A DNA stretch of 32,433 nucleotides from a virus. Its lineage: Duplodnaviria > Caudoviricetes. Shown here piece by piece: positions 1 through 31,872 of the stretch (position 1 is its first letter; each line of letters starts with the position of its first letter). Below the pieces are notes generated by a model. It saw nothing but the letters and a program-made list of their open reading frames with translations, was not told where the DNA came from and ran no database searches. The position numbers and the translations under genes were made by a program. The stretch lies in IMG/VR virus record IMGVR_UViG_3300009164_004823, positions 1 through 32,433 of that record; one strand, written 5' to 3'.

Positions 1-888
1 CCAAGCAATCCAACTGAGTATCAAAGGATTATCAGCAATGCTTGTAACTTGAATGGTCGTAGTGATACACCGAGACATAGTAATCTTTGGCAGGCCGAGC
101 ACAAGGAACTATTCGGGACCAATGGTTACACAATGATTCATAATCAAAGTGGAGACAAAAACGGCCTGCTGTGGAAGAATCGCAAAGAATGGATGGATAC
201 AGTAGAGCGTTTAGAAATTGTTGGCGGCGAACCATTTTACATTCAACAGTGGAACGATATCTGGCAAGAACTAGTTGCCAGCGGCCGCAGTCAAGACATT
301 GATATTTCTATGAGCTCCAATGCTACAATCTTTGCAGGCGAACGTGTTAAATTCCTAAACGATAATTTTAAGAGTGTTGGCCTTGGTTTAAGCATTGACG
401 GTATGGGTAGTATGTATAACTACTTGCGTCATCCTGGTAAGTGGGACGAAGTAAAAGAAAACATACTGGCCTACAGCAAGATGAAACAAGAAGGACTGCT
501 AGATAACACAAATATTTCAGTTAGCCACACAATTGGCTGGCTGAATGCTTGGTACATTCCAGAGTTTACAGCTTGGATTAAAGAAAATACACACGAGTTC
601 CAAATTTGGTACAACCTGATTCATAGTCCAGAACACATGACTATGTGGGCCATACCAGACCGTATTAAAGACATGATTGAAGACAAACTAAAGTCCAGCA
701 GTTTCGGATCTGAAAATCCAGATGTAGTAACGGGCCTGGTAAATCATATGAATAGTGCATTACCTAATACAAAAGATCTAACAAGATTATATACAAAGTT
801 CAGACAACATGACGAAGTACGTGGCGAAGACATACTAGACATATTACCACTTGAGTTTACTGAATGGATGGAACCATTGTTCAAATGA
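1..888 (+). CDS. Radical SAM family protein, 5'-truncated by the window edge; Fe-S motif appears degenerate
   Basis: Frame 1 is open from base 1 (PSNPTEYQRIISNACNLNGRSDTPRHS...). It contains VGGEPF, SSNAT, SIDG and YLRHPGKW, like the neighbouring radical SAM genes. The CxxxCxxC position reads C-N-L-N-G-R-S-D. Confidence 0.8.
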   Translation, partial: PSNPTEYQRIISNACNLNGRSDTPRHSNLWQAEHKELFGTNGYTMIHNQSGDKNGLLWKNRKEWMDTVERLEIVGGEPFYIQQWNDIWQELVASGRSQDIDISMSSNATIFAGERVKFLNDNFKSVGLGLSIDGMGSMYNYLRHPGKWDEVKENILAYSKMKQEGLLDNTNISVSHTIGWLNAWYIPEFTAWIKENTHEFQIWYNLIHSPEHMTMWAIPDRIKDMIEDKLKSSSFGSENPDVVTGLVNHMNSALPNTKDLTRLYTKFRQHDEVRGEDILDILPLEFTEWMEPLFK

Positions 889-964
889 CAAAGAAAATTT
901 TTACAGATGAAGAATGGAATGCAATAAAGAACAACGGAACGTTCTGTCCTGCCCCTTTCTTTTC
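883..964 (+). repeat. 82-nt near-identical direct repeat, copy 1 (copy 2 at 2172..2253)
   Basis: aaatgacaaagaaaatttttacagatg...cccctttcttttc matches the second copy with one synonymous C/T difference. Confidence 0.9.
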
Positions 965-2177
965 CTACTTTGTTGATCCAACTAATAATCTAGGTGCATG
1001 TTGTCAGCATGACACTTCCAGTAAAATAACTACCTTAGAAGAAACATACAATAGTCACAGTTTCAAAGAACTAAGACAGGATTTAGTCAATGGTGTAAAA
1101 AATAAACAATGTAATTCGTGCTGGAAACTGGAGGATATTGGAATAGAATCATATCGTCAAACAATGTTAAGCTGGATGAATGACTGGGAACATTCAGAAG
1201 AGCAGGTCAGAAGTGTAATCGACGATGACGGTAGCATTGATGATCCTGTAATATATTTTATGGATATAAGATTTGATAACACTTGTAATTTGCGCTGTCG
1301 CTCATGCGGCATTAAATTTAGCAGTACTTGGTATCCTGAGGAAAAACTGTATGTGGAACAAACCAACGGGCATGTAATGGCGCATGAGCAATTTATAAAG
1401 GCAAACGTTGCAATTGACGATTTAAAAAAACATCTGACTACTGTAAAAAGAATATACTTTGCTGGCGGCGAGCCATTGATCAATCAACAGCATTATGAAA
1501 TACTAGACTACTTAATTGAAATTGGAAGAACAGACGTAACCTTGTATTACACTACAAATTTCAGTAAGCTAACACATTCTGTTTATGATGTCATTGACTA
1601 TTGGAAAAAATTTAAGGTTGTTTGTGTAGTAGCAAGTTTAGATGGTAGTTATGAACGAGGCGAATATATTCGAAAAAACATCAGTTGGACAAAGGTTGTT
1701 GCTAACAGAGAACGTATGATTGTTGAAGTACCACATGTGAAATTTTTATTAGGTCCAACAATAAGTCTATTGAATGCTTACAATCTGATAGATTTGCACC
1801 GAGAGTGGGTGGAAAAGAAATATATAGGTCCTTACGATCTTAGTATTAACATTCTAACTTTTCCTCTGCAATATCATATTAAAAATTTACCCAGCCACCA
1901 CAAGAAAAAGTTAGAAGAAATATATACAGAACACATTGCGTGGATTAACTCTTTCGACCGTGACTTAAATGACACATCTAGCAATTTTAAATTTTGTATA
2001 AACGGATTTGAAAATGCTATAAAACTATTACAGCAAGACAGTGATTCAAATTGGGCTAAACATTGGGAAAAAAATCAATGGCTAGATCAGCATAGGGATG
2101 AGGACTTCTCTAAAATATTTCCCGAATACATTGATTTGATAGTAAACACACCTAACAATAAAAGTATAAGAAAATGA
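885..2177 (+). CDS. Radical SAM protein with N-terminal twitch/SPASM-like Cys cluster
   Basis: CNLRCRSC, FAGGEP and SLDG motifs; N-terminal FCPAPF..ACC..CNSCW. The ATG at 885 overlaps the upstream stop (ATGA) and matches the paralog start. Confidence 0.9.
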   Translation: MTKKIFTDEEWNAIKNNGTFCPAPFFSYFVDPTNNLGACCQHDTSSKITTLEETYNSHSFKELRQDLVNGVKNKQCNSCWKLEDIGIESYRQTMLSWMNDWEHSEEQVRSVIDDDGSIDDPVIYFMDIRFDNTCNLRCRSCGIKFSSTWYPEEKLYVEQTNGHVMAHEQFIKANVAIDDLKKHLTTVKRIYFAGGEPLINQQHYEILDYLIEIGRTDVTLYYTTNFSKLTHSVYDVIDYWKKFKVVCVVASLDGSYERGEYIRKNISWTKVVANRERMIVEVPHVKFLLGPTISLLNAYNLIDLHREWVEKKYIGPYDLSINILTFPLQYHIKNLPSHHKKKLEEIYTEHIAWINSFDRDLNDTSSNFKFCINGFENAIKLLQQDSDSNWAKHWEKNQWLDQHRDEDFSKIFPEYIDLIVNTPNNKSIRK

Positions 2178-2253
2178 CAAAGAAAATTTTTACAGATGAA
2201 GAATGGAATGCAATAAAGAACAACGGAACGTTTTGTCCTGCCCCTTTCTTTTC
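2172..2253 (+). repeat. 82-nt near-identical direct repeat, copy 2
   Basis: Same sequence as 883..964 with one mismatch. Confidence 0.9.
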
Positions 2254-3529
2254 TTATTACATTGATACAAACAATAAGCTAAGTGCTTGCTGTATACAAA
2301 ATGCTGGCAACAATAAATTTGCCCCAGATATCGTTGCCGGCGTACCACTCAAAGAAACTTACAATCATCAAAACTTTGTAGAAATGCGTCGAGATTTAAG
2401 TGCAGGCGTAAAAAACAAACAATGCGAACGTTGTTGGATGAATGAAGAAATTGATACTCGAAGTATGCGACATGGTATGCTAGAGTGGATGCACGAATGG
2501 AGTGGTGCAGAAGAATACGTTCGTAATGCAATAACAGAAGAACATACAGTTGAAGAGCCAGTTATACATTACATTGATATTAGATTTGATAACACTTGCA
2601 ATTTACGTTGCCGCACATGCTTTTCTCACTATAGTACCAGTTGGTATCCTGAAGAAAAAGAGTATATAACTCAATTTCCAGAAAAGAAATATAAGCTAGC
2701 GCAACCAATACAATTTACCAGTGCTAATGTAACAGTAGATGAACTAAAAGGAAACTTAACAACAGTAAAGCGTATCTATTTTGCCGGCGGCGAACCGCTG
2801 ATTACTCCACAGCATTATGAGATATTGCAATTTCTAATAGACACCGGGCGTACTGATGTTGACCTATACTACAACACAAATTTTAGTAAACTGACACACT
2901 CAAAATTTGATGTTATTGAATACTGGAAGCAATTTAAGAATGTTAGCATTGGTGCCAGCCTAGACGGAAGTCATGAAAAGGGCGAGTACATTAGAAAGAA
3001 CATTAGTTGGGCCAAAGTAGTCGAAAATAGACAGCGTATGATCGATGAAGTGCCACACATACGTTTCTTGTTAAGTCCTACGGTTAGTATTATGAATGTG
3101 TATAACGTATTGGACTTTCATCGCGAATGGGTTGAAAAGAAATATATTGGACCATATGACTTAAATGTAAACTTGTTGTTTGGGCCGCCCGCTTACAATG
3201 TTAAAAGTTTACCAGAGCATCATAAAGAAAAATTGCGAGTGTTATACACTGACCACATTAACTGGGTAAAGAGTTTTAAACCAACATTCGAAAACCGTAA
3301 AAATAAACATTGGTACTATGATGAATTTAGTAGTGTACTCGACCCAGTCTTTTGTATTAATGGATTTGAAAGTGTGCTAAACTTGCTTAACCAAGAACCA
3401 GACCCAGAGTGGAAATTATATTGGGATAAGAACCAATGGTTAGATATGAAACGTGGCGAAGACTTTTACCAGGTATTTCCCGAATTTGAAGACCTGCGAA
3501 ACATTATAGTTGATCATGGACACAATTAA
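2174..3529 (+). CDS. Radical SAM protein with N-terminal twitch-like region; paralog of 885..2177
   Basis: CNLRCRTC, FAGGEP, FCPAPF..ACC..CERCW; ATGA overlap with the upstream stop. Confidence 0.9.
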   Translation: MTKKIFTDEEWNAIKNNGTFCPAPFFSYYIDTNNKLSACCIQNAGNNKFAPDIVAGVPLKETYNHQNFVEMRRDLSAGVKNKQCERCWMNEEIDTRSMRHGMLEWMHEWSGAEEYVRNAITEEHTVEEPVIHYIDIRFDNTCNLRCRTCFSHYSTSWYPEEKEYITQFPEKKYKLAQPIQFTSANVTVDELKGNLTTVKRIYFAGGEPLITPQHYEILQFLIDTGRTDVDLYYNTNFSKLTHSKFDVIEYWKQFKNVSIGASLDGSHEKGEYIRKNISWAKVVENRQRMIDEVPHIRFLLSPTVSIMNVYNVLDFHREWVEKKYIGPYDLNVNLLFGPPAYNVKSLPEHHKEKLRVLYTDHINWVKSFKPTFENRKNKHWYYDEFSSVLDPVFCINGFESVLNLLNQEPDPEWKLYWDKNQWLDMKRGEDFYQVFPEFEDLRNIIVDHGHN

Positions 3530-4763
3530 ACTGCACCAATTGATTAAAGAAACTAGCCCTACGTTTTGTATGGCCAAGTTTCACGAAGCTACCATTTGGT
3601 TATACAATGGTAAGATTGCCAGTTGCCACCATAATCCATTTCATGATGTTGGTAATACAGTTGAGACTTTTTATAACACACCTGTCAAGAGAGAACAGCA
3701 AAGTCGTATGCTCAATGGTGAAAAGCCGGATGCGTGTGGCTATTGCTGGAAACTAGAAGAACAAGGGCTAACAAGCGACCGACACATTAAGAGTGGCAAC
3801 TACCCTGATCATTTAGATGCAGTAGAATATTTTTACCCTGCAACAAACTTTAAACCACGTGTGTTAGAACTTGCGTTTCAAAAGACTTGCAATTTGGGAT
3901 GCTCCTATTGTAATGCTGACTTTAGTAGTCAGTGGTTAAATGATATACGAGTCAACGGAACATACAGCAACATCTTCACAGATACTCGCAAACATTATCA
4001 ACGTCCTGCTGATGAATACAAAGAGTCCCCAGTTGACTTAACATTGTTTTGGTCTTGGCTAGACAGTGTAATTGATAACATAGACATTATTCGCGTTACT
4101 GGCGGAGAGCCGTTGTTGCATGAAGAAACATTTACATTGTTAGATCATGTGCGCTCTAAGAATCCTCTAGTTAAGATTGCTATCAACAGTAACATGTGCC
4201 AAAAACCAACTGTATTAGAACGATTCGTTGAGAAAGTAAAAGGTATTAAAAATGTGTCTATCTATACCAGCAACGAAAGTGCAGGACATGTTGCAGAGAT
4301 ACTACGTGATGGCATGGATTATCAGCAATGGCTTGACAATGTGTTTACGTTAGATCAAGCTGGCCTGGATCACATTTTTATTATGACAACCATCAATGCA
4401 GTAAGCTTACAAAACTTTGATCAGTTCTTACTAGACATGGGCAAACTAAGAACACAAATGCGTACACCTATTACTGTAGATTTTAACTTCTTATCTTATC
4501 CAGAGTTCCAAAATTTTGCTTGCCTGAGTCAGGAAGCACTAGATCATTATTCTGCAAAATATTCAGCATTTATACAAGGTACAGATCACAAACTAAATAT
4601 CACAGAAGTTGCTAATTATCAACGCTTGTTGACCAGATTAAATCAGCCTGTTGCTGAGAACCAAGATAAACTTGCCAAAGACTGCTACAGTTTTTACCAA
4701 CAGTTTGGCCAACGGCGCGGCAAGGATATTAGTAAGCTTGAGTTATTTGAATTTATAGGTTAA
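3516..4763 (+). CDS. Radical SAM protein, N-terminal Cys/His cluster variant
   Basis: CNLGCSYC and TGGEPLL; N-terminal FCMAKF..SCHH..CGYCW. Confidence 0.9.
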   Translation: MDTIKLHQLIKETSPTFCMAKFHEATIWLYNGKIASCHHNPFHDVGNTVETFYNTPVKREQQSRMLNGEKPDACGYCWKLEEQGLTSDRHIKSGNYPDHLDAVEYFYPATNFKPRVLELAFQKTCNLGCSYCNADFSSQWLNDIRVNGTYSNIFTDTRKHYQRPADEYKESPVDLTLFWSWLDSVIDNIDIIRVTGGEPLLHEETFTLLDHVRSKNPLVKIAINSNMCQKPTVLERFVEKVKGIKNVSIYTSNESAGHVAEILRDGMDYQQWLDNVFTLDQAGLDHIFIMTTINAVSLQNFDQFLLDMGKLRTQMRTPITVDFNFLSYPEFQNFACLSQEALDHYSAKYSAFIQGTDHKLNITEVANYQRLLTRLNQPVAENQDKLAKDCYSFYQQFGQRRGKDISKLELFEFIG

Positions 4764-4766
4764 GTT

Positions 4767-5714
4767 ATGGGAATGTTAAACAAGTTTTATGAAATAGACT
4801 TCACAGATGGCACACGTATTGAAACGTTGCGCTACCAAATTGTCGACACCCCAGTTGCAGAGCTATGGTTAGATCGTGTGCGCTGGCATCTTGCATTGCC
4901 TGATTGCCACATTTTTGCTAATCAATGGATAGTTACATTGCCCACATTGGAAAAAGTACAGTCAATGTGGCGCAACATGAAAAAGCTGGTTGATGAAGCA
5001 AACTCTGGACAATACATACAAGTTTCCTATATTGATATGGAGCCTGAGTTTAATCCAAAAGCAGACAACAGAAAAATTTTAAATTATCTACATTTACAAT
5101 TCCATCAATTTGAAGAAGAGCTACGCGGAAAAATTGTTGGATATGATCCACTACAAGAATTAAATGTTGAAATACATCGCATAGAGGCAATGTTGGACAG
5201 GGCACTTGATAACTCTGGACTGATTGCTGGTGATGTCAGTTGTGGATTTTTCTTACATGGTTCCGCTCACACAGCACCAATTAGCGGAACACATACTGTA
5301 CCAATTGACGATATGAGTTTGTATCAGTACTGGCAACACAATACTACCTTTGGCGATCTTTTATTAGGTTATCACACCGTTGGCAAGAACTTAGAACATT
5401 GCTGGCGCGACGGAGATATTGATTTAGTTAAAACAGGTATGTTACGACCTCAACAAACAGTAAGCAACGAAGTAGTATTAGCATTCCGTGGCAACGACGT
5501 GCCCAGTGGAGCCCGGGAGTGGAAAAAAGAAGTTGACGCAATTCAGCAATGGGTCAAGGATAACGACCTAGCGCAGTATGTCGATATGTCACAGCCCTAT
5601 CATAATATATCAGGTAGACCGTTGCTTGGTAGAATAGTAGGCGACTATACCATAGAAGAAATTAATGAAATTTTTGAACTTGGCCGAATTAAAACCGTTA
5701 GACTAATAGAGTGA
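4767..5714 (+). CDS. Hypothetical protein (His-rich motifs LNYLHLQFH, EIHRIE, GYHTVGK)
   Basis: 315-aa ORF tightly coupled within the radical SAM operon; no family recognised. Confidence 0.75.
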   Translation: MGMLNKFYEIDFTDGTRIETLRYQIVDTPVAELWLDRVRWHLALPDCHIFANQWIVTLPTLEKVQSMWRNMKKLVDEANSGQYIQVSYIDMEPEFNPKADNRKILNYLHLQFHQFEEELRGKIVGYDPLQELNVEIHRIEAMLDRALDNSGLIAGDVSCGFFLHGSAHTAPISGTHTVPIDDMSLYQYWQHNTTFGDLLLGYHTVGKNLEHCWRDGDIDLVKTGMLRPQQTVSNEVVLAFRGNDVPSGAREWKKEVDAIQQWVKDNDLAQYVDMSQPYHNISGRPLLGRIVGDYTIEEINEIFELGRIKTVRLIE

Positions 5715-5716
5715 AT

Positions 5717-7108
5717 ATGAAAACAATAGAATTTGGATTATACAATCAGATCAACAATAGATCAGAATCATACCAAGAACACATACGAGGTATTACTAAC
5801 TTTGCAGTCAATTTACAGATTGTTAGTTATAATTGGACAAACAACAAAAATGCCAGTCTTATTGTAGACACAAACGTAGACAGCATACTTGCTAAGGCAG
5901 ACCTAAATAAACCTGATTACGTTTATGTAGTGGCTTATGGTTATCGTAGTTATAACGAACGTCTTGTTACAATGATGATTGATCATGCTGAAGCAAATGG
6001 CTATAGTGTATTGGCGCACATATTAGAAGACAATCCCAAGGACCCATCAAATGGATTTTATTCATTACATAATCAATGTTTTTTAATTAATATGGAACAT
6101 TGGCGTGCCGCAGGAAGTCCAAAATTTGGCGGATATGAAACTACAACAGCAGAACTGCCCTTGGTAGTAAGAAGCAGTAGCAACTTTCACGATGACTACA
6201 CACCATACGAAATCAAGCCAACAGGACAAACACGACAGTACACAGGGCAGTTGCGCGATGGTTGGAATTTAGCTAGCACTATGATTAAACATGGATATTC
6301 AATTGGTAATTTCCCAGACGAGATTCGTAACTTAAAACAACACATATATCCCGAAGTAGGTAACGAGTTAGAACAAGTGTTAGCCGGTGATACATCTGTG
6401 CAAGTAGTTGAGTATAATCAAAAGCGTTACATTGACCTAATGGACTTTAGTGGATTCCAAGGTAGTGTGTATGTGTTTAACACTGATTCAATGCGCCCGG
6501 ACAATATCCCTTATAATAAGAATACCAAATTAGACAGTATCTATTGCGTAGCCGCAGGCTTTAAGCCAATTCAATTAATGAATCAATGTGACTGGGACAG
6601 TAATACACAAATGGTTTATTTTGATTACAGTGATTCCGCATTGGCATTTAAACAATGGCTATTCGAAACATGGGATGGGCGGGATTATCTTGCCGCAGTA
6701 AACAAATACCAAACAGAAATTGATACTGGCTTTAGACCAATTTGGTTTGTAGGCCGTGATTATACACCCGAGTGGAACAAGACTATGGAATACTTTGGTG
6801 GCGAACAAGCTTGGTTAGAACTGTGGGACAAGTATCGTAAATTGCCACATAAGTTTTTAAAAACAAACTTGTACAGTAACTACCAAGACTTGGTTAATGA
6901 TATGAAACAGCATCCGGGAAACAACTTAATTTGGTTTAGCAATAGTTTCTACACTGAAGCAAGTTTAAGACATTTCCGTCCAAGCGAATTAAAAGATTTG
7001 TACGAAAAATTCATTAATGATTTAAAAGCAAATAATAATAGTTTACAAATATGTGGTACTACAGATACAGGAAGTAGTGCTTGGCAACACGTAGGACAAA
7101 TAAAATGA
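5717..7108 (+). CDS. Hypothetical two-domain protein; C-terminal half possibly a Rossmann/SAM-binding-like fold
   Basis: Long ORF (GTG at 5711 is an alternative start). CVAAGFK followed by VYFDYS resembles methyltransferase motif I/II spacing (weak). Confidence 0.7.
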   Translation: MKTIEFGLYNQINNRSESYQEHIRGITNFAVNLQIVSYNWTNNKNASLIVDTNVDSILAKADLNKPDYVYVVAYGYRSYNERLVTMMIDHAEANGYSVLAHILEDNPKDPSNGFYSLHNQCFLINMEHWRAAGSPKFGGYETTTAELPLVVRSSSNFHDDYTPYEIKPTGQTRQYTGQLRDGWNLASTMIKHGYSIGNFPDEIRNLKQHIYPEVGNELEQVLAGDTSVQVVEYNQKRYIDLMDFSGFQGSVYVFNTDSMRPDNIPYNKNTKLDSIYCVAAGFKPIQLMNQCDWDSNTQMVYFDYSDSALAFKQWLFETWDGRDYLAAVNKYQTEIDTGFRPIWFVGRDYTPEWNKTMEYFGGEQAWLELWDKYRKLPHKFLKTNLYSNYQDLVNDMKQHPGNNLIWFSNSFYTEASLRHFRPSELKDLYEKFINDLKANNNSLQICGTTDTGSSAWQHVGQIK

Positions 7109-7848
7109 TTCCACGAGTAATACAAGAGTTCTTTAACGATATTGATAATCCATGGACCATGGATTTTAAAACGCAAGAAATTCCTACATTTGAACACGAA
7201 GGACAATTAGTTGACTGGATTATTAGCCAATCCGGTTGGCCATACTTGCCGCTGATATTGCCCGGTGCGCCATTTGAAACAATGTTAAAAGAAGCATTTG
7301 GCTTGGAAGACTTGTTTGTAATGCATCGTACTACTCCAGGCGAAAATCCCGAGTATGCAAACCTTGGCTGGAAGAGCATTTGCTTACACGGCGAAGCATG
7401 GGACAAGACAGGACACTGGGAAGCATACTCTGATAACGCAGGTAAAACACAAGCAGACATTGTGTACAAGTGGTGCGATGAAATTACAGAACGTTGTCCA
7501 GAAACCACACGTTACTTTCGTGATGTATTTCCTAATCACAATTATCAACGATTGCGTTACATGTGGCTAGACCCACAAGGTTACATACAGCCACATCAAG
7601 ACAGACAAGAACATTTTCTTGGACCTATCAACGTAGCACTAAACAATCCCAAAGGATGTGAGTTTAAAATGGATGGTAAGGGATATGTTCCTTTTAAAGA
7701 AACAGGCAATGCTTGCTTGGTTGACATTGGCAACCATCACTCCGTTTGGAACAACAGTGATACTCCACGAATACACATTATTTCGCATGGTGGTAGCAGA
7801 GGCGATTTCAACCGCATAGTTGTTGACAGCCTCAAGGCATTGCTGTAA
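7105..7848 (+). CDS. Fe(II)/2OG oxygenase, aspartyl/asparaginyl beta-hydroxylase-like
   Basis: IQPHQD (HxD), then HSVWN and PRIHII (distal His and the 2OG-binding Arg); ATGA overlap. Confidence 0.85.
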   Translation: MIPRVIQEFFNDIDNPWTMDFKTQEIPTFEHEGQLVDWIISQSGWPYLPLILPGAPFETMLKEAFGLEDLFVMHRTTPGENPEYANLGWKSICLHGEAWDKTGHWEAYSDNAGKTQADIVYKWCDEITERCPETTRYFRDVFPNHNYQRLRYMWLDPQGYIQPHQDRQEHFLGPINVALNNPKGCEFKMDGKGYVPFKETGNACLVDIGNHHSVWNNSDTPRIHIISHGGSRGDFNRIVVDSLKALL

Positions 7849-7861
7849 TACCTGTATATTA

Positions 7862-7881
7862 ATAAGTATTGTTTTAAAGGA
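7862..7881 (+). repeat. 20-bp direct repeat, copy 1: TAAGTA box plus Shine-Dalgarno
   Basis: ataagtattgttttaaagga, identical at 9464..9483. Confidence 0.9.
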
Positions 7882-7889
7882 GATATCCA

Positions 7890-8003
7890 ATGTTTAAAAA
7901 AATACTAGACTTTATTCTTGGACCATATCGTAGATACCAAGACAAGCGTCGATTAAAAAAGCGCATTGCTGAGCTACGCAAGCGAGATCCATTTATCTAC
8001 TAA
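7890..8003 (+). CDS. 37-aa basic peptide MFKKILDFILGPYRRYQDKRRLKKRIAELRKRDPFIY (not in the ORF track)
   Basis: Strong SD (aaggag) 8 nt upstream. The ORF fills the gap exactly and ends 3 nt before the carbamoyltransferase start. Confidence 0.8.
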   Translation: MFKKILDFILGPYRRYQDKRRLKKRIAELRKRDPFIY

Positions 8004-8006
8004 CAT

Positions 8007-9464
8007 ATGATACTTGGTATTACAGCACAAAATCATGATGCCAGTCTGGCATTAATTGATGGAGATCGGATTGTGTGGGCCGCACATGCAGAACGCTACA
8101 GTAGAGTTAAGAACGATAATCTGCTAAATGCAGACATGTTGGCAGACATGCGGCAGTATGGTGAACCAACCGAACTGGTATGGTTTGAACGGCCCGTACA
8201 AAAAGACCTACGTAGATTGATTTCTGGTCAACGGCCATGGCGGATTGTTCCTGGTGACCAACTACGTGCAGTGGGATTAGATCACTTGCCCGTTAACTAT
8301 GTTGGCCATCATCATAGTCATGCTTCAGCCGGCTATTACACCAGTCCATATGAAGATGCTAGTATCTTAGTCGTAGATGCGATTGGTGAATGGGACACAG
8401 TCAGTATCTGGGAAGCACGTAAAGATAAGATGGTCAATCGTTGGCGTAAGCGTTACCCCAACAGCTTTGGATTATTCTACACAGCAATGACACAATGGCT
8501 TGGCCTAAAGCCCAACGAAGAAGAATATATTCTCATGGGCATGGCCGCTCATGGCACACCTCGGTACGTTGAAGAATTAAGAGAAACATTCTTTAGGAAA
8601 TGGGCACCACCTGATTTTAAACTGCGACATAATTTACATCGTGGTTGTTCTTGGTGGGAGCCATGTGATAGTCCTGCCTCAAAATTTGATATTGCCGCAA
8701 GTGTACAAAAACTTGCAGAAGAATACCTATTAGAAACTGTATTAGTAATCAAAGCAAATACCACAAGTGACAATTTAATTTTCATGGGCGGTGTTGCTCT
8801 CAATTGTGTAGCAAACTCTGTTATTGCAAGAAGCGGCATCTTTAAAAATATTTGGATTATGCCCAACCCCGGCGATTCTGGTAGTGCCATTGGTGCTGTT
8901 GCCGCATACACACAACGCCATTTAAAATGGTCAGGACCTTACTTGGGCACAGATATTAAACAAGATGTAGACATCAAATCACTTGTAGATGACTTAGAAG
9001 CAGGCAAAGTTGTTGCACTGGCAAACGGACGTACAGAGTTTGGCCCAAGAGCTTTAGGCAATAGAAGTTTACTTTGCGACCCTAGAGGTGTAGATGCCAA
9101 GCTGAGAATGAACACTGTCAAGAAGCGCGAACAGTTTAGACCATTTGCGCCAGCAGTATTAGCAGAACATGCCGACACATACTTTGACATGCCGGTCAAG
9201 GACAGTCCTTACATGCAGTTCGTGGCACGTTGCAGGACTCCTGACTTGCTACCAGGTGTTTGCCATGTAGACAATACCAGCAGAGTACAAACAGTAACTG
9301 AACGAGATAATCCTTTGTTTAGAAGTATTCTAGAAGAATGGAACGCTCGCACAGGTTGCCCCATCTTGATGAATACAAGTTTGAATATCAAAGGTGAACC
9401 CCTGGTCAACACTTGGGCAGATGCACTAAGATTTCAAAGCCTACATAATATACCCGTTTATTGA
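8007..9464 (+). CDS. Carbamoyltransferase, NodU/CmcH/TobZ family
   Basis: HDAS, ERYSRVKND, HHHSHA, DAIGE, MGMAAHG, GGVALNC, EFGPRALGNRS, FRPFAP, HVDNTSRVQTV, NTSLN..GEP. Confidence 0.95.
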   Translation: MILGITAQNHDASLALIDGDRIVWAAHAERYSRVKNDNLLNADMLADMRQYGEPTELVWFERPVQKDLRRLISGQRPWRIVPGDQLRAVGLDHLPVNYVGHHHSHASAGYYTSPYEDASILVVDAIGEWDTVSIWEARKDKMVNRWRKRYPNSFGLFYTAMTQWLGLKPNEEEYILMGMAAHGTPRYVEELRETFFRKWAPPDFKLRHNLHRGCSWWEPCDSPASKFDIAASVQKLAEEYLLETVLVIKANTTSDNLIFMGGVALNCVANSVIARSGIFKNIWIMPNPGDSGSAIGAVAAYTQRHLKWSGPYLGTDIKQDVDIKSLVDDLEAGKVVALANGRTEFGPRALGNRSLLCDPRGVDAKLRMNTVKKREQFRPFAPAVLAEHADTYFDMPVKDSPYMQFVARCRTPDLLPGVCHVDNTSRVQTVTERDNPLFRSILEEWNARTGCPILMNTSLNIKGEPLVNTWADALRFQSLHNIPVY

Positions 9465-11601: not shown

Positions 11602-11942
11602 GAAGATTATATCCAGCAAGATTGCTAGAAGTACGCGGCACTGACATGCTAGACGTAGAACTAGATCTTGGCTTTAATGTTTATACACGTCAAAAGATTA
11701 GACTGTTTGGAGTTGCATCATGCGGCAAAGACTCAGATGTGCGAATTGTCTTAACTGAGTTATGTAAAGATGGACTCATCGTGGAACCTATTATCACCAA
11801 ACGTGCCAAGTTAGGTCGTGTGCTTGGTTGGGCGTATATTCCTAACGAAGCCGGTGAGCCCACATTAAATATCAATCAAGCCATGGTAGACCAAGGACTA
11901 GCAACCAGCTTCCAGGTCACCGAAGAGGAGGATGATGAATAA
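11598..11942 (+). CDS. Thermonuclease (SNase)-like protein, degenerate active site
   Basis: LDLGF, IRLFGV, KLGRVLG and INQAMVDQGLA match the phage SNase-like pattern, but DGDT and DTPE are altered. Confidence 0.65.
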   Translation: MRRLYPARLLEVRGTDMLDVELDLGFNVYTRQKIRLFGVASCGKDSDVRIVLTELCKDGLIVEPIITKRAKLGRVLGWAYIPNEAGEPTLNINQAMVDQGLATSFQVTEEEDDE

Positions 11943-12676: not shown

Positions 12677-12685
12677 GGTGATACA

Positions 12686-17079: not shown

Positions 17080-17093
17080 TCAACTTTTCACAT

Positions 17094-17120
17094 GGGTGGG
17101 AATTAAAAATCCCACCCTTT
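17094..17120 (+). terminator. Stem-loop terminator after hsp20
   Basis: gggtggga...tcccaccc 8-bp stem followed by ttt. Confidence 0.6.
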
Positions 17121-17156
17121 AGATAAATATTAGACAAGAACACGGGTATATAACAA

Positions 17157-22620: not shown

Positions 22621-22634
22621 AGTGAGATATTTAG

Positions 22635-22652
22635 TGTTGTAAAAATGCAACA
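22635..22652. promoter_or_regulatory. Palindromic operator-like site TGTTG-N8-CAACA, copy 1
   Basis: tgttgtaaaaatgcaaca, 7 nt upstream of a -35 box. Confidence 0.7.
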
Positions 22653-22659
22653 GCGTATC

Positions 22660-22688
22660 TTGACAGGTGAGCCAGTTTGTGTTATACT
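22660..22688 (+). promoter_or_regulatory. Sigma70-type promoter
   Basis: TTGACA-17-TATACT. Confidence 0.85.
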
Positions 22689-22708
22689 GTTTAATTAAAG
22701 GAGAAAGT

Positions 22709-22993
22709 ATGCAAGCTAAAAACTTTATAAGCAAATATACAAGCGCCAATAATCGTAAAGCATATGGGAGTTTTTATAATATAAAAGCTACGGAAAAATG
22801 GGTGGAGTATATGCTAGACATTACAGATATGAACCGAGTATTAATGTCTTTACCGTTTAACGATAAAATGCGTATGCTAGATGCCCTAGAGGCGGCAGAG
22901 CGCAAGCGAGATTATATGTACAGACACCCAAATTTTAACTATAAACAAGCTACCCGGTGGTACGAGATGGCAAAAGATTTGCCTAAAAAGTAA
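22709..22993 (+). CDS. Hypothetical protein (94 aa)
   Basis: SD aaggag before ATG 22709; lies downstream of the promoter. Confidence 0.75.
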   Translation: MQAKNFISKYTSANNRKAYGSFYNIKATEKWVEYMLDITDMNRVLMSLPFNDKMRMLDALEAAERKRDYMYRHPNFNYKQATRWYEMAKDLPKK

Positions 22994-22998: not shown

Positions 22999-23020
22999 GT
23001 TGTTGTAAAAATACAACAAC
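22999..23020. promoter_or_regulatory. Palindromic operator-like site, copy 2
   Basis: gttgttgta-aaaa-tacaacaac, a perfect 9-bp inverted repeat. Confidence 0.75.
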
Positions 23021-23027
23021 AAAATGG

Positions 23028-23056
23028 TTGACAAGTGGCCCTAAAAGTACTATAAT
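23028..23056 (+). promoter_or_regulatory. Perfect consensus sigma70 promoter
   Basis: TTGACA-17-TATAAT. Confidence 0.9.
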
Positions 23057-24649: not shown

Positions 24650-25201
24650 ATGTATATTCCATCTCATATTATTGCCAGCGTAAAAAATGCAATACCGGTT
24701 TATAAAGATTGGCCCAAGCCTGGCATCTCATACAAAAATACAGTAGAACTGGCCCAACAACCAATGGCATTTGCACATGCCATAGACTGGTTTTCTTTAG
24801 TGGCCAGGCAAGCTACTGCAAAAGAAATATTTGCTCCAGATGCTCGTGGTTTTATATTTGGTTCAGCATTGTCAATCAAGTCACACTTGCCAATGACGGT
24901 TGTGCGTAAACCCGGAAAGCTACCCGGAGATGTGTGGAGTCAAAGTTATGAGTTGGAGTATGGCACAGACACACTGGAGATACAGCAAAATATACAAGCA
25001 GGTGACAGACCTGTTCTCATTGTTGATGATGTGTTGGCCACTGGCGGAACAGCACAAGCAATTTGCAAACTATTACACAATAACTTGGGTATTGCATATT
25101 CATCAATGACAGTTGCTGTCCTGATTAATCTTTCCTTCTTAGGTGGTAAAACACTTTTAACCGAGCAAGGTGTTGCTGTACATGGGCTACTAAATGAATG
25201 A
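24650..25201 (+). CDS. apt: Adenine phosphoribosyltransferase
   Basis: DWPKPGI, DARGF, RKPGKLPG, YELEYG, VLIVDDVLATGGT (PRPP motif). Confidence 0.93.
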   Translation: MYIPSHIIASVKNAIPVYKDWPKPGISYKNTVELAQQPMAFAHAIDWFSLVARQATAKEIFAPDARGFIFGSALSIKSHLPMTVVRKPGKLPGDVWSQSYELEYGTDTLEIQQNIQAGDRPVLIVDDVLATGGTAQAICKLLHNNLGIAYSSMTVAVLINLSFLGGKTLLTEQGVAVHGLLNE

Positions 25202-25751
25202 TCTAATTGTGTTTGCTTTAGAAGATGAAGCACCAGGTCTTTTTAAAGAATACTCTAATGTGCATTGCATTGGAGTAGGCAAGGTCAATGCCGCAATAAA
25301 TCTAATGCGGCTATGTCACATATACCATCCCAGGCGCATTATCAACATGGGTACAGCAGGCGGCATTAGATTGGGGCATGGCGTACATCGTATCAATACT
25401 GTATGGCAACATGACGTAAACTTGATGGCACTTGGCATGCAACCGGGTATTCACTTCAATGATCCTGTAAGTATGATTATCATGCCCGGTATAGGTAAGA
25501 CTTGTGCGTCAGGTGATATCTTTATTACTGAACCCAACAAGCTTCGAGTAGAATGTGATGTAGTCGACATGGAGGCATACAGCGTGGCCAAGGTAGCAAA
25601 TACACTTGGACTTGATATCGAAATATGGAAGTACATCAGTGACCCTGCAGATGTGGGCGCCGGTACAACTTGGAAAGAACAAGTGTCATCTGGAGAACCA
25701 CTTTACAGACAAGTGTTAGAAGAATTAAAAATTAAATTGGAACCTAAATGA
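25194..25751 (+). CDS. MTA/SAH nucleosidase-like protein (PNP_UDP family)
   Basis: ALEDE, GVGKVNAA, INMGTAGG, SGDIF, VDMEA, KYISD.AD. Confidence 0.85.
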   Translation: MNDLIVFALEDEAPGLFKEYSNVHCIGVGKVNAAINLMRLCHIYHPRRIINMGTAGGIRLGHGVHRINTVWQHDVNLMALGMQPGIHFNDPVSMIIMPGIGKTCASGDIFITEPNKLRVECDVVDMEAYSVAKVANTLGLDIEIWKYISDPADVGAGTTWKEQVSSGEPLYRQVLEELKIKLEPK

Positions 25752-26332
25752 AAATAGCAAGCGGCTATGCCGAAATGTTTGAGTGGGATGATGGTAACCC
25801 AAACAACGAGGATCGAACCGGACTAACAGTTGCACTTTATAGCGGTGATAAAATTAGAGTTGCCAGCGCCAATGATGTGCCCATTGGAGTTGTTGGCGGG
25901 GACAATACCAGTGTAGCGGCTATTAGCAATGCTAGTCCACAGGAATGGCACGGAAAACATTTAAGAGATGTTGCTGGTAGATTACTTTGGGAAGGCCAAG
26001 TAATGGTTGAATGGATTGACAAAGGATTTCGTCACTGGTATGAAACCGATCGTTTACCAGAAGGTATTACTATACCGGAGAATGCAACATATTACTACGA
26101 ACTAAATGGACATAAACTACAAAGAGAAATATTATCAGAAGAATTTAAACAAAAAAATGGGATGGTACCGCAGTACTTGCCACGTTGGGAAAGACAAGAG
26201 TGGGGTATAGTAGTGTTATTGGGTAGAGCAGTTGTCAGAGAAGGTAGCGTATGCAATCCATTGTGGAAAAGATTAAAACTTCAGGACGGAGAATTATACG
26301 GGCAATCTGTGGCCGAGTGGTTAATAAGATAA
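25748..26332 (+). CDS. Stand-alone Peptidase_G2-like intramolecular-chaperone domain
   Basis: YAEMFEW.DGNP..EDR.G..V and YLPRWERQEW..V.LLG pattern, normally C-terminal on tailspikes. Confidence 0.7.
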   Translation: MKIASGYAEMFEWDDGNPNNEDRTGLTVALYSGDKIRVASANDVPIGVVGGDNTSVAAISNASPQEWHGKHLRDVAGRLLWEGQVMVEWIDKGFRHWYETDRLPEGITIPENATYYYELNGHKLQREILSEEFKQKNGMVPQYLPRWERQEWGIVVLLGRAVVREGSVCNPLWKRLKLQDGELYGQSVAEWLIR

Positions 26333-26601: not shown

Positions 26602-27462
26602 ATGCAAACAAAAAACATCTTTCCAGACTGGGGCACAGAGATCACAGACATGAGTGATATCTTTGAGCAAGATACTCGTGAATTGAGAAAGCTACTGTAT
26701 GATCGTAAAATGATAGTATTACATGCTCCTGAATGGGACAAGCTAACTTATTGGAAGTTTTGTGCGCTATGGGGACAACCGTGGACAGGAAAGAACTATC
26801 ATGATAGTACAGAAAAATGGGAAGTTGTACTTGACCCAGAATCCCCAGGCGAACCAAAATTTATCACAGCAATCAGTAACAAAATTAGTGCTCGTTTGGG
26901 TGACAAAGAAATGCCTTGGCATGCTGACATTGCCAATCGCGTAGATGGCGGCATTCAGTTTCCGCATCGTATTATCTACATGAAGACTGTGCCTAATCCA
27001 AAAGCAGGTTTAACTGTTTGGTTAGATATGGAAAAAGCTTATCCTGAAGTACATTCAAGACTTAGAGCACGTTGGGAAGCACGTACTATTGTTCAGCAAA
27101 ATTGGCACCATCTTGGCAATGACATTATTGAATGGCCTTCAATGAAACAGCAACCAATTACTGGCCGCTGGAGCCCGAGATGTAACTTTCACGGAGTCAC
27201 TGATGCATGGATCATTGATACCAAGTTAAATGGTAAAAGCATGGGAACTGGTATTGTTGAAGAACTCATGGAAGCAATGGCTGCTGTTCCAGAATGTGTA
27301 TACACGCACACATGGACTCCAAATGACATGGTCCTATATGACAACTGGCCATTTGTACATAGCAGAACATTCTTAGATTTAAAAGCTGAAGACGAACGCT
27401 TAATGTGGCGTTGTAACATTGAACACGATGAAAGCTTAAAAGAAACCCTGTATGGAAAGTAA
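26602..27462 (+). CDS. TauD/TfdA family Fe(II)/2OG dioxygenase
   Basis: WHAD, TVWLDM, HTWTPNDMVLYDNWPFVHSR, RLMWR. Confidence 0.9.
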   Translation: MQTKNIFPDWGTEITDMSDIFEQDTRELRKLLYDRKMIVLHAPEWDKLTYWKFCALWGQPWTGKNYHDSTEKWEVVLDPESPGEPKFITAISNKISARLGDKEMPWHADIANRVDGGIQFPHRIIYMKTVPNPKAGLTVWLDMEKAYPEVHSRLRARWEARTIVQQNWHHLGNDIIEWPSMKQQPITGRWSPRCNFHGVTDAWIIDTKLNGKSMGTGIVEELMEAMAAVPECVYTHTWTPNDMVLYDNWPFVHSRTFLDLKAEDERLMWRCNIEHDESLKETLYGK

Positions 27463-28159
27463 CTACATATACTTTAACTCTTGTAAATTACTAGATCCTT
27501 TAACCGACAATTGGACCACAATTCGTGATGAGTTTATTAAAAACTCAATGCGAGAATCGTATAAGGCACGTGTAACAAATGAAGAAGAAAAAGGCATCAA
27601 AGCAAACTATATCACTGACCTAACAGGTGAAGAATTGTATGTTGGTGATTTCAAAGCCATGCCTGTTATGCTAAGAGAAGATTTTGTTGACCATCACGAA
27701 GCAAAGTCAATGGACTGGAAGAATTGGAAGCAACCAGGTGGTGAGAAAATATCATTCAATGATGCAAGGCTACATCGTATGCCATTTATACAACAGTGGA
27801 TGTATAGGAACATTGAGGTACTTGGTGCAGTCACTTTTAATATTTCATTACCTGGAAGCAAATTGAATCACCACTGGGGCTTGGTAAATGAATATATTCG
27901 TTTTCACTTGGTGTTAAAGCAAGCAACAGGTTGTGTATTTGATATTGAAAACGAAAGACATGAATGGGTAGATGGTGAGTTATTTGGTTTTGATGACTGC
28001 AATGTATTTCACGGTACCAAGCATACTGGCACAGAGCCTAGAATAATCATGTTGATTGATATTCTAAAAAGTGCAGTCCAACCTTATGCTAAAACTTGGC
28101 CTGTAAGAGAAAATATACCTCGGAACAAGAGAACTATCCCAACTATACTGGATTGGTAA
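27452..28159 (+). CDS. Aspartyl/asparaginyl beta-hydroxylase family protein
   Basis: PGSKLNHHWG, IRFHLVL, W.DGELFGFDD..FH..PRIIMLID. Confidence 0.88.
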   Translation: MESNYIYFNSCKLLDPLTDNWTTIRDEFIKNSMRESYKARVTNEEEKGIKANYITDLTGEELYVGDFKAMPVMLREDFVDHHEAKSMDWKNWKQPGGEKISFNDARLHRMPFIQQWMYRNIEVLGAVTFNISLPGSKLNHHWGLVNEYIRFHLVLKQATGCVFDIENERHEWVDGELFGFDDCNVFHGTKHTGTEPRIIMLIDILKSAVQPYAKTWPVRENIPRNKRTIPTILDW

Positions 28160-28160: not shown

Positions 28161-28757
28161 ATGCTATTTGAATTAAATCATCGTGTGGTAGACGCTATTG
28201 ATACCAGTCTAGTAGACCCTATCATTGAAGCTTGTAAAAAAGCCAACTGGGGCAATGGTACATATGATAGATTTGAAAAAGTTCTGTCTGATGGCAAATT
28301 GGTAGAATATCCGTTTCCTATCAGCAAGCCTAATAAAACTTACACACCAGAGCAAACAGAAATTCTACGAGCAAGCAAGCCCCTGCTAGATTGGATCTTG
28401 ACCTTGCCTAGGTTTGCAGGATACAAATGGATTCGTGGTGAAGTTGCTACGCTACTTCCAGGAGTAACACTAGGTTGGCACAAAGATCCACAGTGGTTCC
28501 ATGATAATTGTGTGCGTTTACATGTACCAATTTATACCAACGACCAGTGTGTACAACTTTGGAAAACCGAAGAGTACCATATGGAAATGGGTTATCTATA
28601 CGAATTGAATAATCGTGTGACTCATAGTGCAACCAACAGAGGCACAGAGTTTAGAACCCACTTAATCTTAGATATCATGCCAGAGACTAAGTGGCAAGAG
28701 TCAAGGCAATCAGGAATTAACCCAATTGGCCTTGTTGATGCTCCTGGCGAGTATTAA
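28161..28757 (+). CDS. Fe(II)/2OG oxygenase (AspH-like)
   Basis: WHKD, RLHVPI.TN, YELNNRVTHSATN..RTHLILD. Confidence 0.88.
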   Translation: MLFELNHRVVDAIDTSLVDPIIEACKKANWGNGTYDRFEKVLSDGKLVEYPFPISKPNKTYTPEQTEILRASKPLLDWILTLPRFAGYKWIRGEVATLLPGVTLGWHKDPQWFHDNCVRLHVPIYTNDQCVQLWKTEEYHMEMGYLYELNNRVTHSATNRGTEFRTHLILDIMPETKWQESRQSGINPIGLVDAPGEY

Positions 28758-30066: not shown

Positions 30067-30085
30067 ATACCTAAAGGAGTTTAAC

Positions 30086-30376
30086 ATGAAAAAACTTTTA
30101 ATCGCAATCGTAGCAACTATGGCCCTGACGGGTTGTGCAAGTAGAACAGGTACTGCTGTACTTGCTGGTACCACTGGCCTTATCATTGGCAATGCAATGG
30201 CACAGCCACAGCACAGAGTGGTAACACACGAGCAAGTGATCATTGTAAACAGCACCTGTGCTCAATATCAACTTCACAGTGACAGAGCCGCTTGTGAACG
30301 TGGCGCACGTCAACGTTGGCAAGAAGAACAGCGCAAGAGAGAACAAGAAGCATATCGTCAAGGCTATGGACGATAA
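30086..30376 (+). CDS. Putative lipoprotein
   Basis: MKK plus hydrophobic stretch plus LTGC lipobox; glycine-zipper-like segment; TATAAATA (30062..30069) and SD aaggag upstream. Confidence 0.8.
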   Translation: MKKLLIAIVATMALTGCASRTGTAVLAGTTGLIIGNAMAQPQHRVVTHEQVIIVNSTCAQYQLHSDRAACERGARQRWQEEQRKREQEAYRQGYGR

Positions 30377-31872
30377 TGAGTTATAATGTAATACTGATTG
30401 GTGGTATCACATTTGATCGAATAGGCAGAGCAATTGGTCCTTTTAGATTAAGAACAGCATTTGAAAATGCAGGATATTCACTAAAGGCCATTGACTACGC
30501 CTGGGCACTTGATCAGGATCAAATGATTGAATTGTTGTCAACACTTATTACACCAGAAACAAAAATATTAGGTATCAGTGCTGCCTGGTATGATTTTCCA
30601 GCCAATAAGTGGGCACAGGATCTTACTTTTTTCAGGAGATTTAGGAGTCTCTTTCCGGACATAACAATTGTTGTTGGAGGCACCAGTACCACTCCACCGT
30701 CATTGTTATATAACTATTCTGACTGGTTTGTTAGTGGGTTCAGTGATATTGCATTTGTCAAGCTTGTTGATTATCTCTATGGAAAAACGTCAGATTTGAT
30801 TTATACAACAGATGCACACGGCATTCCTGGTCCGGGTCCTGGCAAAATTAAAATAGTATCAGCTGACAGAGATTATCAAATAATAAATGTGGATGAAATT
30901 GAAACAGTCTTTAAGGAAGAGGATGGATTCTTATCTCATCAACCCTTACCTATTGAAATAAGCAGGGGCTGTATTTTTAAATGTGCATTTTGCACACATC
31001 CTTTCCTGGGTAAAAAGTCATACGATTATATACGAACAGCAGAAAGCATCGGTAGCGAACTTAAAAGAAATTATGAGTTGTTTGGTACCTACCGATACAT
31101 GATATCTGATGATACATTTAACGACAGCTACGAAAAACTAGATATAGTTAAACGAGCAATTGAAATTGCTAAGTTATCAAAATTTGAATTTGTGAGTTAT
31201 ATTAGGCCTGAACTAATTATCACCAAACCCAATATGCTTTCTATGCTACTTGACTTGGGTATCAAGGGTGGGTTTATTGGCCTCGAGTCTATGCGAAAAG
31301 AATCTAGACAGGTAGTTGGAAAAGGCATTGCAGTTGACCGGGTACTTGAAATTGCACAAACTCTCAATGAGAGTGGTGTTAAAATGCATGCCAGTTTAAT
31401 TGCTGGTCTACCAGGTGACTCTGAAGAAGAAATTCATAAATGGAATGATTACCTAATTGAGAACAAGAGTCGTCTATTTAGAAGTTGGAATTTCAATGCA
31501 CTTGGAATGCACCGAACAGCAAAGGGTGATGTGCCATACAGCTTGTTTGAAAAAAAACCAAAATCTTATGGGTATACCACTAAAGAATTGGCGCACAACA
31601 TACGGTCATTGGACTGGGTACATACATCTGGAATGACTGCGGCCAAGGCACAAGAAATTTCTAACAAATGTAATGCTTCTGCTAGACAACATATAAAAAT
31701 TGGCGGCTGGGAAGTTGCAGGTGCTTGGTTCCATGACATACCAGAATCTATTGTGGAAAATATGCCATTTAATCAGACCAATCTCAATGAGAAATCCTAT
31801 GAAAACTCAATGGCACGAGCCAGTTATAATTATAATTTGACCACGGGCAAACATTTGAACAATGCACAATGA
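30376..31872 (+). CDS. B12-binding-type radical SAM protein
   Basis: N-terminal ILGISA..IVVGG domain, EISRGCIFKCAFC, DDTFND, IGLES, LIAGLPGD. Confidence 0.9.
   Translation: MSYNVILIGGITFDRIGRAIGPFRLRTAFENAGYSLKAIDYAWALDQDQMIELLSTLITPETKILGISAAWYDFPANKWAQDLTFFRRFRSLFPDITIVVGGTSTTPPSLLYNYSDWFVSGFSDIAFVKLVDYLYGKTSDLIYTTDAHGIPGPGPGKIKIVSADRDYQIINVDEIETVFKEEDGFLSHQPLPIEISRGCIFKCAFCTHPFLGKKSYDYIRTAESIGSELKRNYELFGTYRYMISDDTFNDSYEKLDIVKRAIEIAKLSKFEFVSYIRPELIITKPNMLSMLLDLGIKGGFIGLESMRKESRQVVGKGIAVDRVLEIAQTLNESGVKMHASLIAGLPGDSEEEIHKWNDYLIENKSRLFRSWNFNALGMHRTAKGDVPYSLFEKKPKSYGYTTKELAHNIRSLDWVHTSGMTAAKAQEISNKCNASARQHIKIGGWEVAGAWFHDIPESIVENMPFNQTNLNEKSYENSMARASYNYNLTTGKHLNNAQ

Follow-up and report, generated by a model that had tools for sequence, protein, structure and literature searches.

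Background

Among the closest described counterparts of the system examined here are virus-encoded enzymes of virion glycosylation. The system is an island of tailoring enzymes at the start of a 32,433-bp phage genome fragment, IMG/VR virus record IMGVR_UViG_3300009164_004823, the whole of which was analysed and is termed the window below. Bases 1–9464 of the window are the end of a swappable operon or island that combines a tandem array of radical S-adenosylmethionine (SAM) genes, three genes designated w5, w6 and w7, and a carbamoyltransferase. It is a real, clade-wide and functionally undescribed tailoring island, which most likely works in the manner of virus-encoded glycan building and editing. 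The chlorovirus PBCV-1 protein A064R carries a glycosyltransferase (GT) and a methyltransferase in one chain, and mimivirus L230 couples a hydroxylase to a GT, as set out in the passages of PMC9614988 on these proteins. The island resembles these proteins, and mimivirus R699, in that w6 is predicted to join a GT-A domain to a class I methyltransferase and in that a hydroxylase is coupled to it; chlorovirus and mimivirus virion-glycosylation enzymes also appear among the structural neighbours of w6. The differences lie in the bacterial host, in a w6 without the DxD motif and in sequence identities of 5–17%; those passages of PMC9614988 mention neither a radical SAM array nor a carbamoyltransferase for the A064R, L230 and R699 systems.

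A further parallel is the ten-gene cluster of carbamoyltransferase, 2-oxoglutarate (2OG)-Fe and methylase genes of cyanophage S-SSM6a, which likewise represents tailoring in a jumbo phage without a scaffold synthase and which, in the section devoted to it, is proposed to decorate a polysaccharide or to make a metabolite (Iyer et al. 2021, PMC7824862). In contrast to the window, S-SSM6a belongs to another host group, the main text of that paper is free of the terms 'radical' and 'rSAM', and the window has no halogenase. Vibrio phages K566 and K567 possess an island (VPK566_0302-0314) whose radical SAM proteins are related to those of the window (23% identity, E 4e-12) and are interleaved with GT8 and GT4 genes. 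According to the account of this region, it is replaced as a block between close relatives, and it differs from the present case in bearing an anti-defence label without a test (Bernard et al. 2025, PMC12028318).

Phage DNA hypermodification (the glucosylated hydroxymethylcytosine of T4, glc-hmC; 5-hydroxymethyldeoxyuridine, 5hmdU; and 7-deazaguanine) draws on the same enzyme superfamilies, and the clade of the window has genes for FolE, QueE, QueD and QueC-like proteins. However, the clade has no hydroxymethylase-type second thymidylate synthase over the cut-off, and its restriction sites are purged, unlike those of T4. The array proteins themselves belong to family NF033640 (N_Twi_rSAM), which, going by its description, we take to be catalogued without a function; four window proteins score over its cut-off and share its twitch region, CxxxCxxC and GGEP motifs, but here, in phage islands, they are lined up in tandem as paralogues specific to their slots. 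The mycobacteriophage virion glycosylation described by Freeman et al. in 2023 reportedly involves a few GTs in small siphoviruses, and we know of no radical or oxidative tailoring in it. Mycobacteriophage GTs glycosylate capsid and tail tube proteins, as cited in PMC12619734. The open-access literature (subscription papers and supplements being outside this scope) yielded no functional study of such radical SAM arrays, in agreement with the undescribed tailoring role that a preliminary description of the window had proposed; the body text available for PMC12619734, PMC13573597 and PMC6802176 has no discussion of them, and the supplements may list such genes.

The radical SAM array and its downstream border

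The window opens within a tandem array on the plus strand that encodes four N-terminal-twitch radical SAM proteins, all above the curated NF033640 cut-off of 170 bits. These comprise a 5'-truncated gene at 1–888 (179 bits), genes at 885–2177 (335 bits) and 2174–3529 (332 bits), the first of this pair being a recent duplicate of the second (60% amino acid identity), and a separate paralogue class at 3516–4763 (269 bits). In an alignment the GGEP and CxxxCxxC motifs and the Cys-rich N-terminal twitch region are intact in all four. The array extends upstream of the window, as revealed by record G001 (41.3 kb), which is 99.8% identical to the window over the 19.5 kb compared and runs past it on both sides. 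This record has seven tandem copies, four of them in the window, all with CxxxCxxC and the N-terminal twitch cysteines; its version of the truncated gene encodes 404 residues and is the fourth of the seven. In a quick tree of 47 NF033640 copies from seven records, all of which keep CxxxCxxC, the proteins group by array slot and not by genome. The seven G001 copies fall into six clades common to other genomes, with the 885/2174 pair as the sole recent duplicate. Such slot-specific paralogues fit a multi-step pathway with dedicated enzymes.

Relatives were represented by 36 long records picked from carbamoyltransferase and ClpX scans (some counts below are over 37 records). NF033640 matches were found in 26 of the 36, with 11, 16 and 3 matches in three complete genomes and a maximum of 17 in one partial genome, whereas none of 14 control genomes has a match over the cut-off. 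Among GenBank phages only four records match the window's radical SAM proteins, namely RsoM2USA, K566, K567 and one single-cell fragment. One window radical SAM protein compared with cellular genome contigs, in a scan sensitive to close relatives only, found no relative. Two further records (G019:C1:79399-81825 and G020:C1:46981-49407) each have two NF033640 domains in one 818-residue open frame, i.e. fused radical SAM paralogues.

The intergenic gaps over the first seven genes of the window are −4, −4, −14, +3, +2 and −4 nt, and bases 1–7848 are translationally coupled. There follow a T4-late-type promoter-like motif (7862–7868, plus strand), a 37-residue basic microprotein with the C-terminus DPFIY (7890–8003, plus strand) and a NodU/CmcH-family carbamoyltransferase (8007–9464, plus strand; PF02543, 157 bits, and PF16861, 184 bits, both above their cut-offs), which forms the fixed downstream border of the island and scores 141 against a NodU equivalog cut-off of 1000, thus not reaching it. 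The microprotein is a partner of the carbamoyltransferase, being encoded upstream of it in 37 of 53 loci examined. It tracks this gene and not the array, since it is present in nine loci (L006-L010, L012-L015) with no radical SAM gene within 10 kb, and its C-terminus is near-invariant while the array varies.

The w5-w6-w7 module

Judging from structure models, the clue to the substrate would lie mainly in two genes of unknown function at 4767–7108. The first, w5 (4767–5714, plus strand; 315 residues), is predicted to form a cyclophilin-like barrel with an inserted helical bundle (AF2 model, predicted local distance difference test (pLDDT) 92.9). VIA comparison retrieved about 20 cyclophilin-fold chains at Z 6.5–7.8, i.e. 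weak but repeated matches below the Z 8 guide, while Foldseek gave no hit at E<=0.001 and the Atlas no usable named hit. Six residues (H109, H113, H137, E140, H203 and C212) are invariant in 42 of 42 homologues. The helical bundle insert bears invariant His and Glu residues, and w5 is a candidate metalloprotein.

The second gene, w6 (5717–7108, plus strand; 463 residues; pLDDT 94.3), is predicted to combine a GT-A domain (approximately residues 1–240) with a class I SAM-dependent transferase domain (approximately 244–461); VIA Z-scores reach 11.1 and 11.4 for the two domains, and Foldseek E-values go down to 2e-5. The N-terminal domain matches mimivirus R699 (Z 11.1, root mean square deviation 2.7 over 146 residues), a glycosyltransferase oligomer and the LH3/ColGalT1 complex (11.0 and 10.7), Mnn9 (10.7), STIV A197 (10.0) and the PBCV-1 capsid glycosyltransferase (9.2). 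The best GT-A matches, R699, LH3/ColGalT1, Mnn9 and glucan synthases among them, are tied within one Z unit, with viral GTs acting on virion proteins just below. The C-terminal domain matches an uncharacterised Leptospira protein (11.4) and CheR (9.5) and has the features of a class I Rossmann fold, namely a Gly-containing motif I and an acidic residue after strand 2, with G281 and D303 invariant in 46 of 46 homologues. These 46 homologues match no Pfam family, and w6 has no sequence match in the PDB.

The third gene, w7 (7105–7848, plus strand), encodes an AspH-like Fe(II)/2OG hydroxylase (PF05118, 45 bits; this family is found in none of the 14 control genomes). Fusions tie these genes together: P0018 joins w5 to w6, P0036 joins w6 to w7, and in G017 a radical SAM protein bears a fused w5-like domain. 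For w7, an Atlas cluster of 119 fused proteins (score 0.83) is a lead only. As w6 was found in 11 of 37 records, all of which also carry NF033640 matches, fusion and co-occurrence together suggest that the w5-w6-w7 module and the radical SAM array probably act as one functional unit.

Separate inheritance and gene neighbourhoods of the island

The preliminary description had regarded the tailoring enzymes of the whole region as acting together. Most presence/absence columns in our comparison span 10 kb either side of ClpX, and statements on inheritance rest on six records that were covered in full or almost so (G002, G003, G004, G006, G017 and G008). G017 carries ten NF033640 copies and w5-w6-w7, while the nine downstream oxygenases, the QueC-like gene and the B12-binding-type radical SAM gene are all missing across its continuous syntenic interval. 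G002, the core genes of which are mostly 85–99% identical, keeps most of the downstream oxygenases at 80–96% identity but has a different set between the first radical SAM gene and the carbamoyltransferase, including DUF6071, DUF6492 and a B12 radical SAM. These patterns indicate two gene sets and not one system. The genes for the downstream oxygenases, the QueC-like protein and the B12 radical SAM form an accessory set with an inheritance of its own, and a single 32-kb pathway is ruled out by presence and absence in the six records. Co-occurrence in relatives, for which the preliminary description had proposed a check, is borne out.

Island content is reshuffled between phages that are about 90% identical in core genes. 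A scan of 56 island proteins (from G017, G008, K566 and RsoM2USA) assigned no family to 26 of them; the others are mostly further radical SAM proteins or products of glycan genes. The G008 islands encode two NDP-sugar epimerases, a DegT aminotransferase, a sugar C-methyltransferase and a weak GT2; in G017 a chitin-synthase/GT2-like gene (below the cut-off) directly follows w7; in K566 the radical SAM genes are interleaved with two GT8 genes and a weak GT4; and in RsoM2USA an epimerase gene follows the tail sheath gene. In G003, three family-less genes on the opposite strand (L066:13309-16241; 459, 317 and 200 residues) replace the B12 radical SAM region.

Candidate substrates of the island

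The fold, neighbourhood and restriction-site evidence favours a glycan over DNA as the substrate. The preliminary description held that the substrate could not be read from the sequence; these lines of evidence narrow it to that extent. With a little less than even confidence, we propose that the island would build and edit a glycan, most likely on virion proteins. This proposal extends to every reaction, to the timing and to the target: each twitch radical SAM paralogue would carry out one redox, epimerisation or C–C step on a nucleotide-sugar or glycan, w7 would hydroxylate an acceptor, the GT-A domain of w6 would transfer or bind a sugar that its SAM domain would methylate, and the carbamoyltransferase would cap a sugar hydroxyl, so that an island swap would change the surface chemistry. 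The T4-late-type motif, which recovers 8 of 10 T4 late genes and occurs about once per kb upstream of genes versus 0.03 per kb in coding sequence (about 30-fold), stands ahead of the first radical SAM gene in G002, G003, G004 and G017 and is a weak indication of late timing.

Several observations weigh against a virion glycan. After the strand where a DxD motif would be expected in w6 (judged from sequence and predicted secondary structure) there is instead Ala-Tyr-Gly with the invariant Gly75, and the domain is therefore filed as a GT-A fold and not as a proven GT. Given that its top Foldseek hits are nucleotidyltransferases, it could also be a binding or nucleotidyl-transfer domain. There is no match to w6 among GenBank phages, and it is absent from 26 of the 37 records, including the complete genomes G011 and G012. 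Compared with PDB sequences, the radical SAM profile scores best against 8vpo (E 8e-9), presumably TigE, an enzyme modifying peptides that are synthesised on the ribosome and altered after translation (RiPPs), with cytosylglucuronate decarboxylase, BtrN and other sugar or nucleoside enzymes ranking behind it. In the window lineage the island adjoins the DNA ligase gene and the ClpX block, about 50–60 kb from the collagen-like fibre genes. The timing evidence is weak because the late-type motif is unspecific in G006, where it precedes 11 of 50 structural, 6 of 34 replication and 9 of 44 small genes; the first radical SAM gene of G006 has a sigma70-type match instead, and that of G001 a one-letter variant of the late motif. 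Lastly, virion and host-envelope glycans are not separable directly from the present data.

The hypermodification of phage DNA, or of a subset of its bases, against restriction is an improbable role for these enzymes. Phage GTs, 2OG dioxygenases and radical SAM enzymes reportedly act in this way elsewhere (PMC8989533; 10.1101/2023.12.21.572611). FolE is found in each of the three relatives with complete genomes; G008 has QueE next to it, and G002 QueD. In G008, FolE, QueE and MetK lie in a row (L185:13523-16368) with no DpdA recognised nearby; the gene after FolE-QueE, considered as a DpdA2 candidate, turned out to be MetK. However, in a test for depleted 6-mer palindromes with 50-kb controls from T4 and RB49, the fractions were 0/39 for T4, 14/50 for RB49, 3/40 for G001, 6/55 for G002, 4/56 for G006 and 11/55 for G008, whereas depletion affected no more than 10 of some 3,900 non-palindromes. 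Sites containing all four bases are thus purged in the window's genome and its relatives, unlike in T4, which argues against global hypermodification. A 25-kb stretch of K566 under-uses palindromes as well, and one account of a Schizotequatrovirus reports partial modification (15% of deoxyguanosine, dG); the purge is hence compatible with partial modification. No complete relative carries more than one canonical thymidylate synthase; there is one weak sub-cut-off match in G013 and no second, hydroxymethylase-type enzyme over the cut-off, and a TGT match is found in none of five genomes. The TET/JBP and HMUDK_hel searches were blank but had no positive control, and the DpdA search was blank with a model that missed its positive control K566, so that neither counts as evidence.

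Another unlikely, though still appreciable, explanation is that a host-envelope glycan (lipopolysaccharide, lipid A or capsule) would be what the island makes or edits during infection, thereby hiding receptors from rival phages or from grazers. The same glycan-gene neighbourhoods would suit it, as would the porin and TRAP transporter genes of G006 and the weak LpxO-like match of the accessory gene at 27452 (45 bits against a cut-off of 500). The K566 island has a gene annotated as PagP-like and is described, in the account of that region, as bringing glycosyltransferase and lipid A genes (PMC12028318), and capsule decoration features among the proposals for the cyanophage carbamoyltransferase/2OG cluster (Iyer et al., section on that cluster, PMC7824862). 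On the other hand, no flippase, polymerase or membrane GT family is among the hits of the window's island, and the late-type motif, though a weak clue, is more in keeping with assembly than with an early remodelling of the host. A small molecule (a modified nucleoside, sugar or amino acid) made for anti-defence or competition is distinctly unlikely, even if twitch radical SAM relatives of solved structure act on nucleoside and aminocyclitol antibiotic precursors and families typical of tailoring (carbamoyltransferase, TauD, B12 radical SAM) are represented. The anti-defence name given to the K566 region (Bernard et al., account of that island, PMC12028318), the secondary-metabolite option of Iyer et al. 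(same section, PMC7824862) and the occurrence of MetK in 6 and of a nucleosidase in 14 of 37 records point the same way, but no scaffold-forming gene is conserved across the islands, their content is reshuffled between phages with cores about 90% identical, and the recurrent genes encode glycosyltransferases and not exporters. A direct action on peptides or protein side chains, by RiPP-like crosslinks or beta-hydroxylation and with the microprotein or small open reading frames as substrate, is decidedly improbable. The match to 8vpo (presumably a RiPP enzyme), the action of AspH-family enzymes on proteins and the conserved microprotein within the island would agree with this, yet the microprotein tracks the carbamoyltransferase regardless of radical SAM genes within 10 kb, its C-terminus hardly changes while the array does, and the window has no precursor repeats or arrays, as had been observed in the preliminary description. 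Least of all do we expect w5-w6-w7 to be a collagen-processing module (cyclophilin-like protein, hydroxylysine-type GT and hydroxylase) for Gly-X-Y fibres, a notion to which we give very little weight. Top GT-A matches of w6 are collagen hydroxylysine glycosyltransferases, w5 resembles cyclophilins, collagen-like fibres are present in the clade, and mimivirus L230 is a precedent (passages on it in PMC9614988). Against this, those GT-A Z-scores lie no more than 1 from the values for Mnn9 and glucan synthases, and the cyclophilin match is under Z 8. A collagen-specific role moreover failed a co-occurrence test, w6 being present in 5 of the 18 records with collagen and in 6 of the 19 without; the complete genome G008 has w6 without collagen, and the complete G011 and G012 show the reverse.

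The accessory set and possible SAM supply

Family scans of 45 window proteins confirmed the enzyme inventory of the preliminary description, and each gene named there begins where it was said to begin. Its five radical SAM genes are the four NF033640 members and the B12-binding-type gene at 30376–31872 (plus strand), which has family profile matches, and its approximately ten oxygenase-like genes, w7 included, divide into six that are Pfam-positive, two linked by profile-profile comparison and two recognised by an HxD...H pattern. Besides w7, the Asp_Arg_Hydrox (AspH-like) genes lie at 11942–12676 (exactly at the cut-off), 12686–13408, 27452–28159 (AspH/LpxO-like) and 28161–28757, and a TauD-family dioxygenase gene at 26602–27462, all on the plus strand. 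The genes at 19068–19982 and 20579–21325 (plus strand) are linked to the 28161 family at 95.6% and 75.7%, respectively. The pattern-only genes at 18085–19071 (plus strand) and 21952–22749 (minus strand) lack other support from Pfam and give hhalign E-values of 0.005 and 0.011. The 12686 gene is a tandem duplicate of the 11942 gene; relatives keep one copy of this tandem (11942-13408), and in run X9 one contig omits 12626-13359. The carbamoyltransferase noted earlier is that of the island, and the PP-loop enzyme is a QueC-like ATP pyrophosphatase with a C-terminal four-Cys site (21327–21974, plus strand; PF06508, 25 bits against a cut-off of 22), which at 19.6 against 150.3 does not reach the QueC equivalog score. 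Likewise in accord with the earlier account, none of the 45 proteins hit a non-ribosomal peptide synthetase (NRPS), polyketide synthase (PKS) or terpene core family. That account had overlooked the upstream array copies, the microprotein at 7890-8003, the two unknown island genes and a pair of genes at 24650–25751 (plus strand) encoding an adenine phosphoribosyltransferase (APRT) and a methylthioadenosine/S-adenosylhomocysteine (MTA/SAH)-nucleosidase-like protein.

This APRT and nucleosidase pair, which is patchy in relatives, may possibly salvage SAM by-products. MetK occurs in both radical-SAM-rich complete genomes, and the nucleosidase gene adjoins a radical SAM gene in G008, G009 and G039. 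This suggests SAM provisioning in some lineages, though not as a requirement: obligatory salvage by nucleosidase and APRT was rejected, because the nucleosidase is confined to the 14 records and is missing from the complete genome G011.

Phage origin and further features

The window derives from a T4-like freshwater phage, probably a jumbo phage, and its phage origin is settled through relatives. CheckV completeness of 12% for G001 and 26% for G002 (86.5 kb) would give a genome of about 340 kb, and a w5 homologue is present on a 332,645-bp GenBank phage. The best two sequencing runs, holding 0.96 and 0.88 of the window's words, are freshwater metagenomes, and the first of them may be the sample from which the window came. 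G006 (244 kb) is syntenic with the window over 8-29 kb at 38–69% identity and, in a scan of 127 of its 134 larger proteins, has Gp23, the Gp20 portal, a T4-type terminase, sheath and prohead protease. Gp23, Gp20, terminase and sheath are not in the window itself, so that the capsid and terminase evidence sought in the preliminary description comes from this relative; together with the virus record it rules out a cellular origin. Close relatives encode collagen-like tail fibres, clamp loader, ligase, PhoH and a GroES-like gene.

A block of ClpX, ribosomal protein S21, Hsp20 and ClpS genes (15026–17468, plus strand) is kept across the clade, and relatives of this clade additionally carry ClpA/B, ClpP, DnaJ and GroES-like genes. 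Upstream of ClpX, 13410-14600 encodes a clade-conserved, family-less protein with multiple membrane segments, a coiled coil and a variable acidic tail. A lone Peptidase_G2 autoproteolytic chaperone domain, usually the terminal part of a fibre or appendage protein, is encoded at 25748-26332. A TGTTGT...ACAACA palindromic element lies at 22635-22652, 23001-23056 and 32170-32187, ahead of sigma70-type promoters of small genes, and is a candidate early-promoter or regulator site. Neither tRNA genes nor repeat arrays were found in the window. G006 encodes a phage-borne set of tripartite ATP-independent periplasmic (TRAP)/tricarboxylate transporter genes (L168:13759-19438 and L169:9781-19189: three DctP, one DctM, TctC and a porin), of which TctC presumably hints at a betaproteobacterial host. 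It also has about nine unknown genes of 230–430 residues without a Pfam family, which adjoin large tail genes, a weak AspH-like gene and a fatty acid desaturase (L163:5112-14230).

Implications

Arrays of NF033640 radical SAM genes are a standing feature of large aquatic phages. It is possible, though we would put it below the probable, that aquatic jumbo phages run a radical-chemistry glycan factory, in which up to 17 slot-specific radical SAM paralogues and a three-part module of a His-rich cyclophilin-like metalloprotein, a DxD-less GT-A/methyltransferase and an AspH-type hydroxylase would build strain-specific, heavily edited virion sugars. Such a factory would be to phages what O-antigen variation is to bacteria, and would offer a large, as yet untapped store of radical enzymes that edit sugars. 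The fused three-gene module with its confident models and the cultured pair K566/K567 versus 6E351A, which differ by such an island, offer handles on this system. If a virion glycan is indeed edited, phage surfaces would be chemically diversified much like bacterial surfaces, and many new sugar-radical reactions would become accessible.

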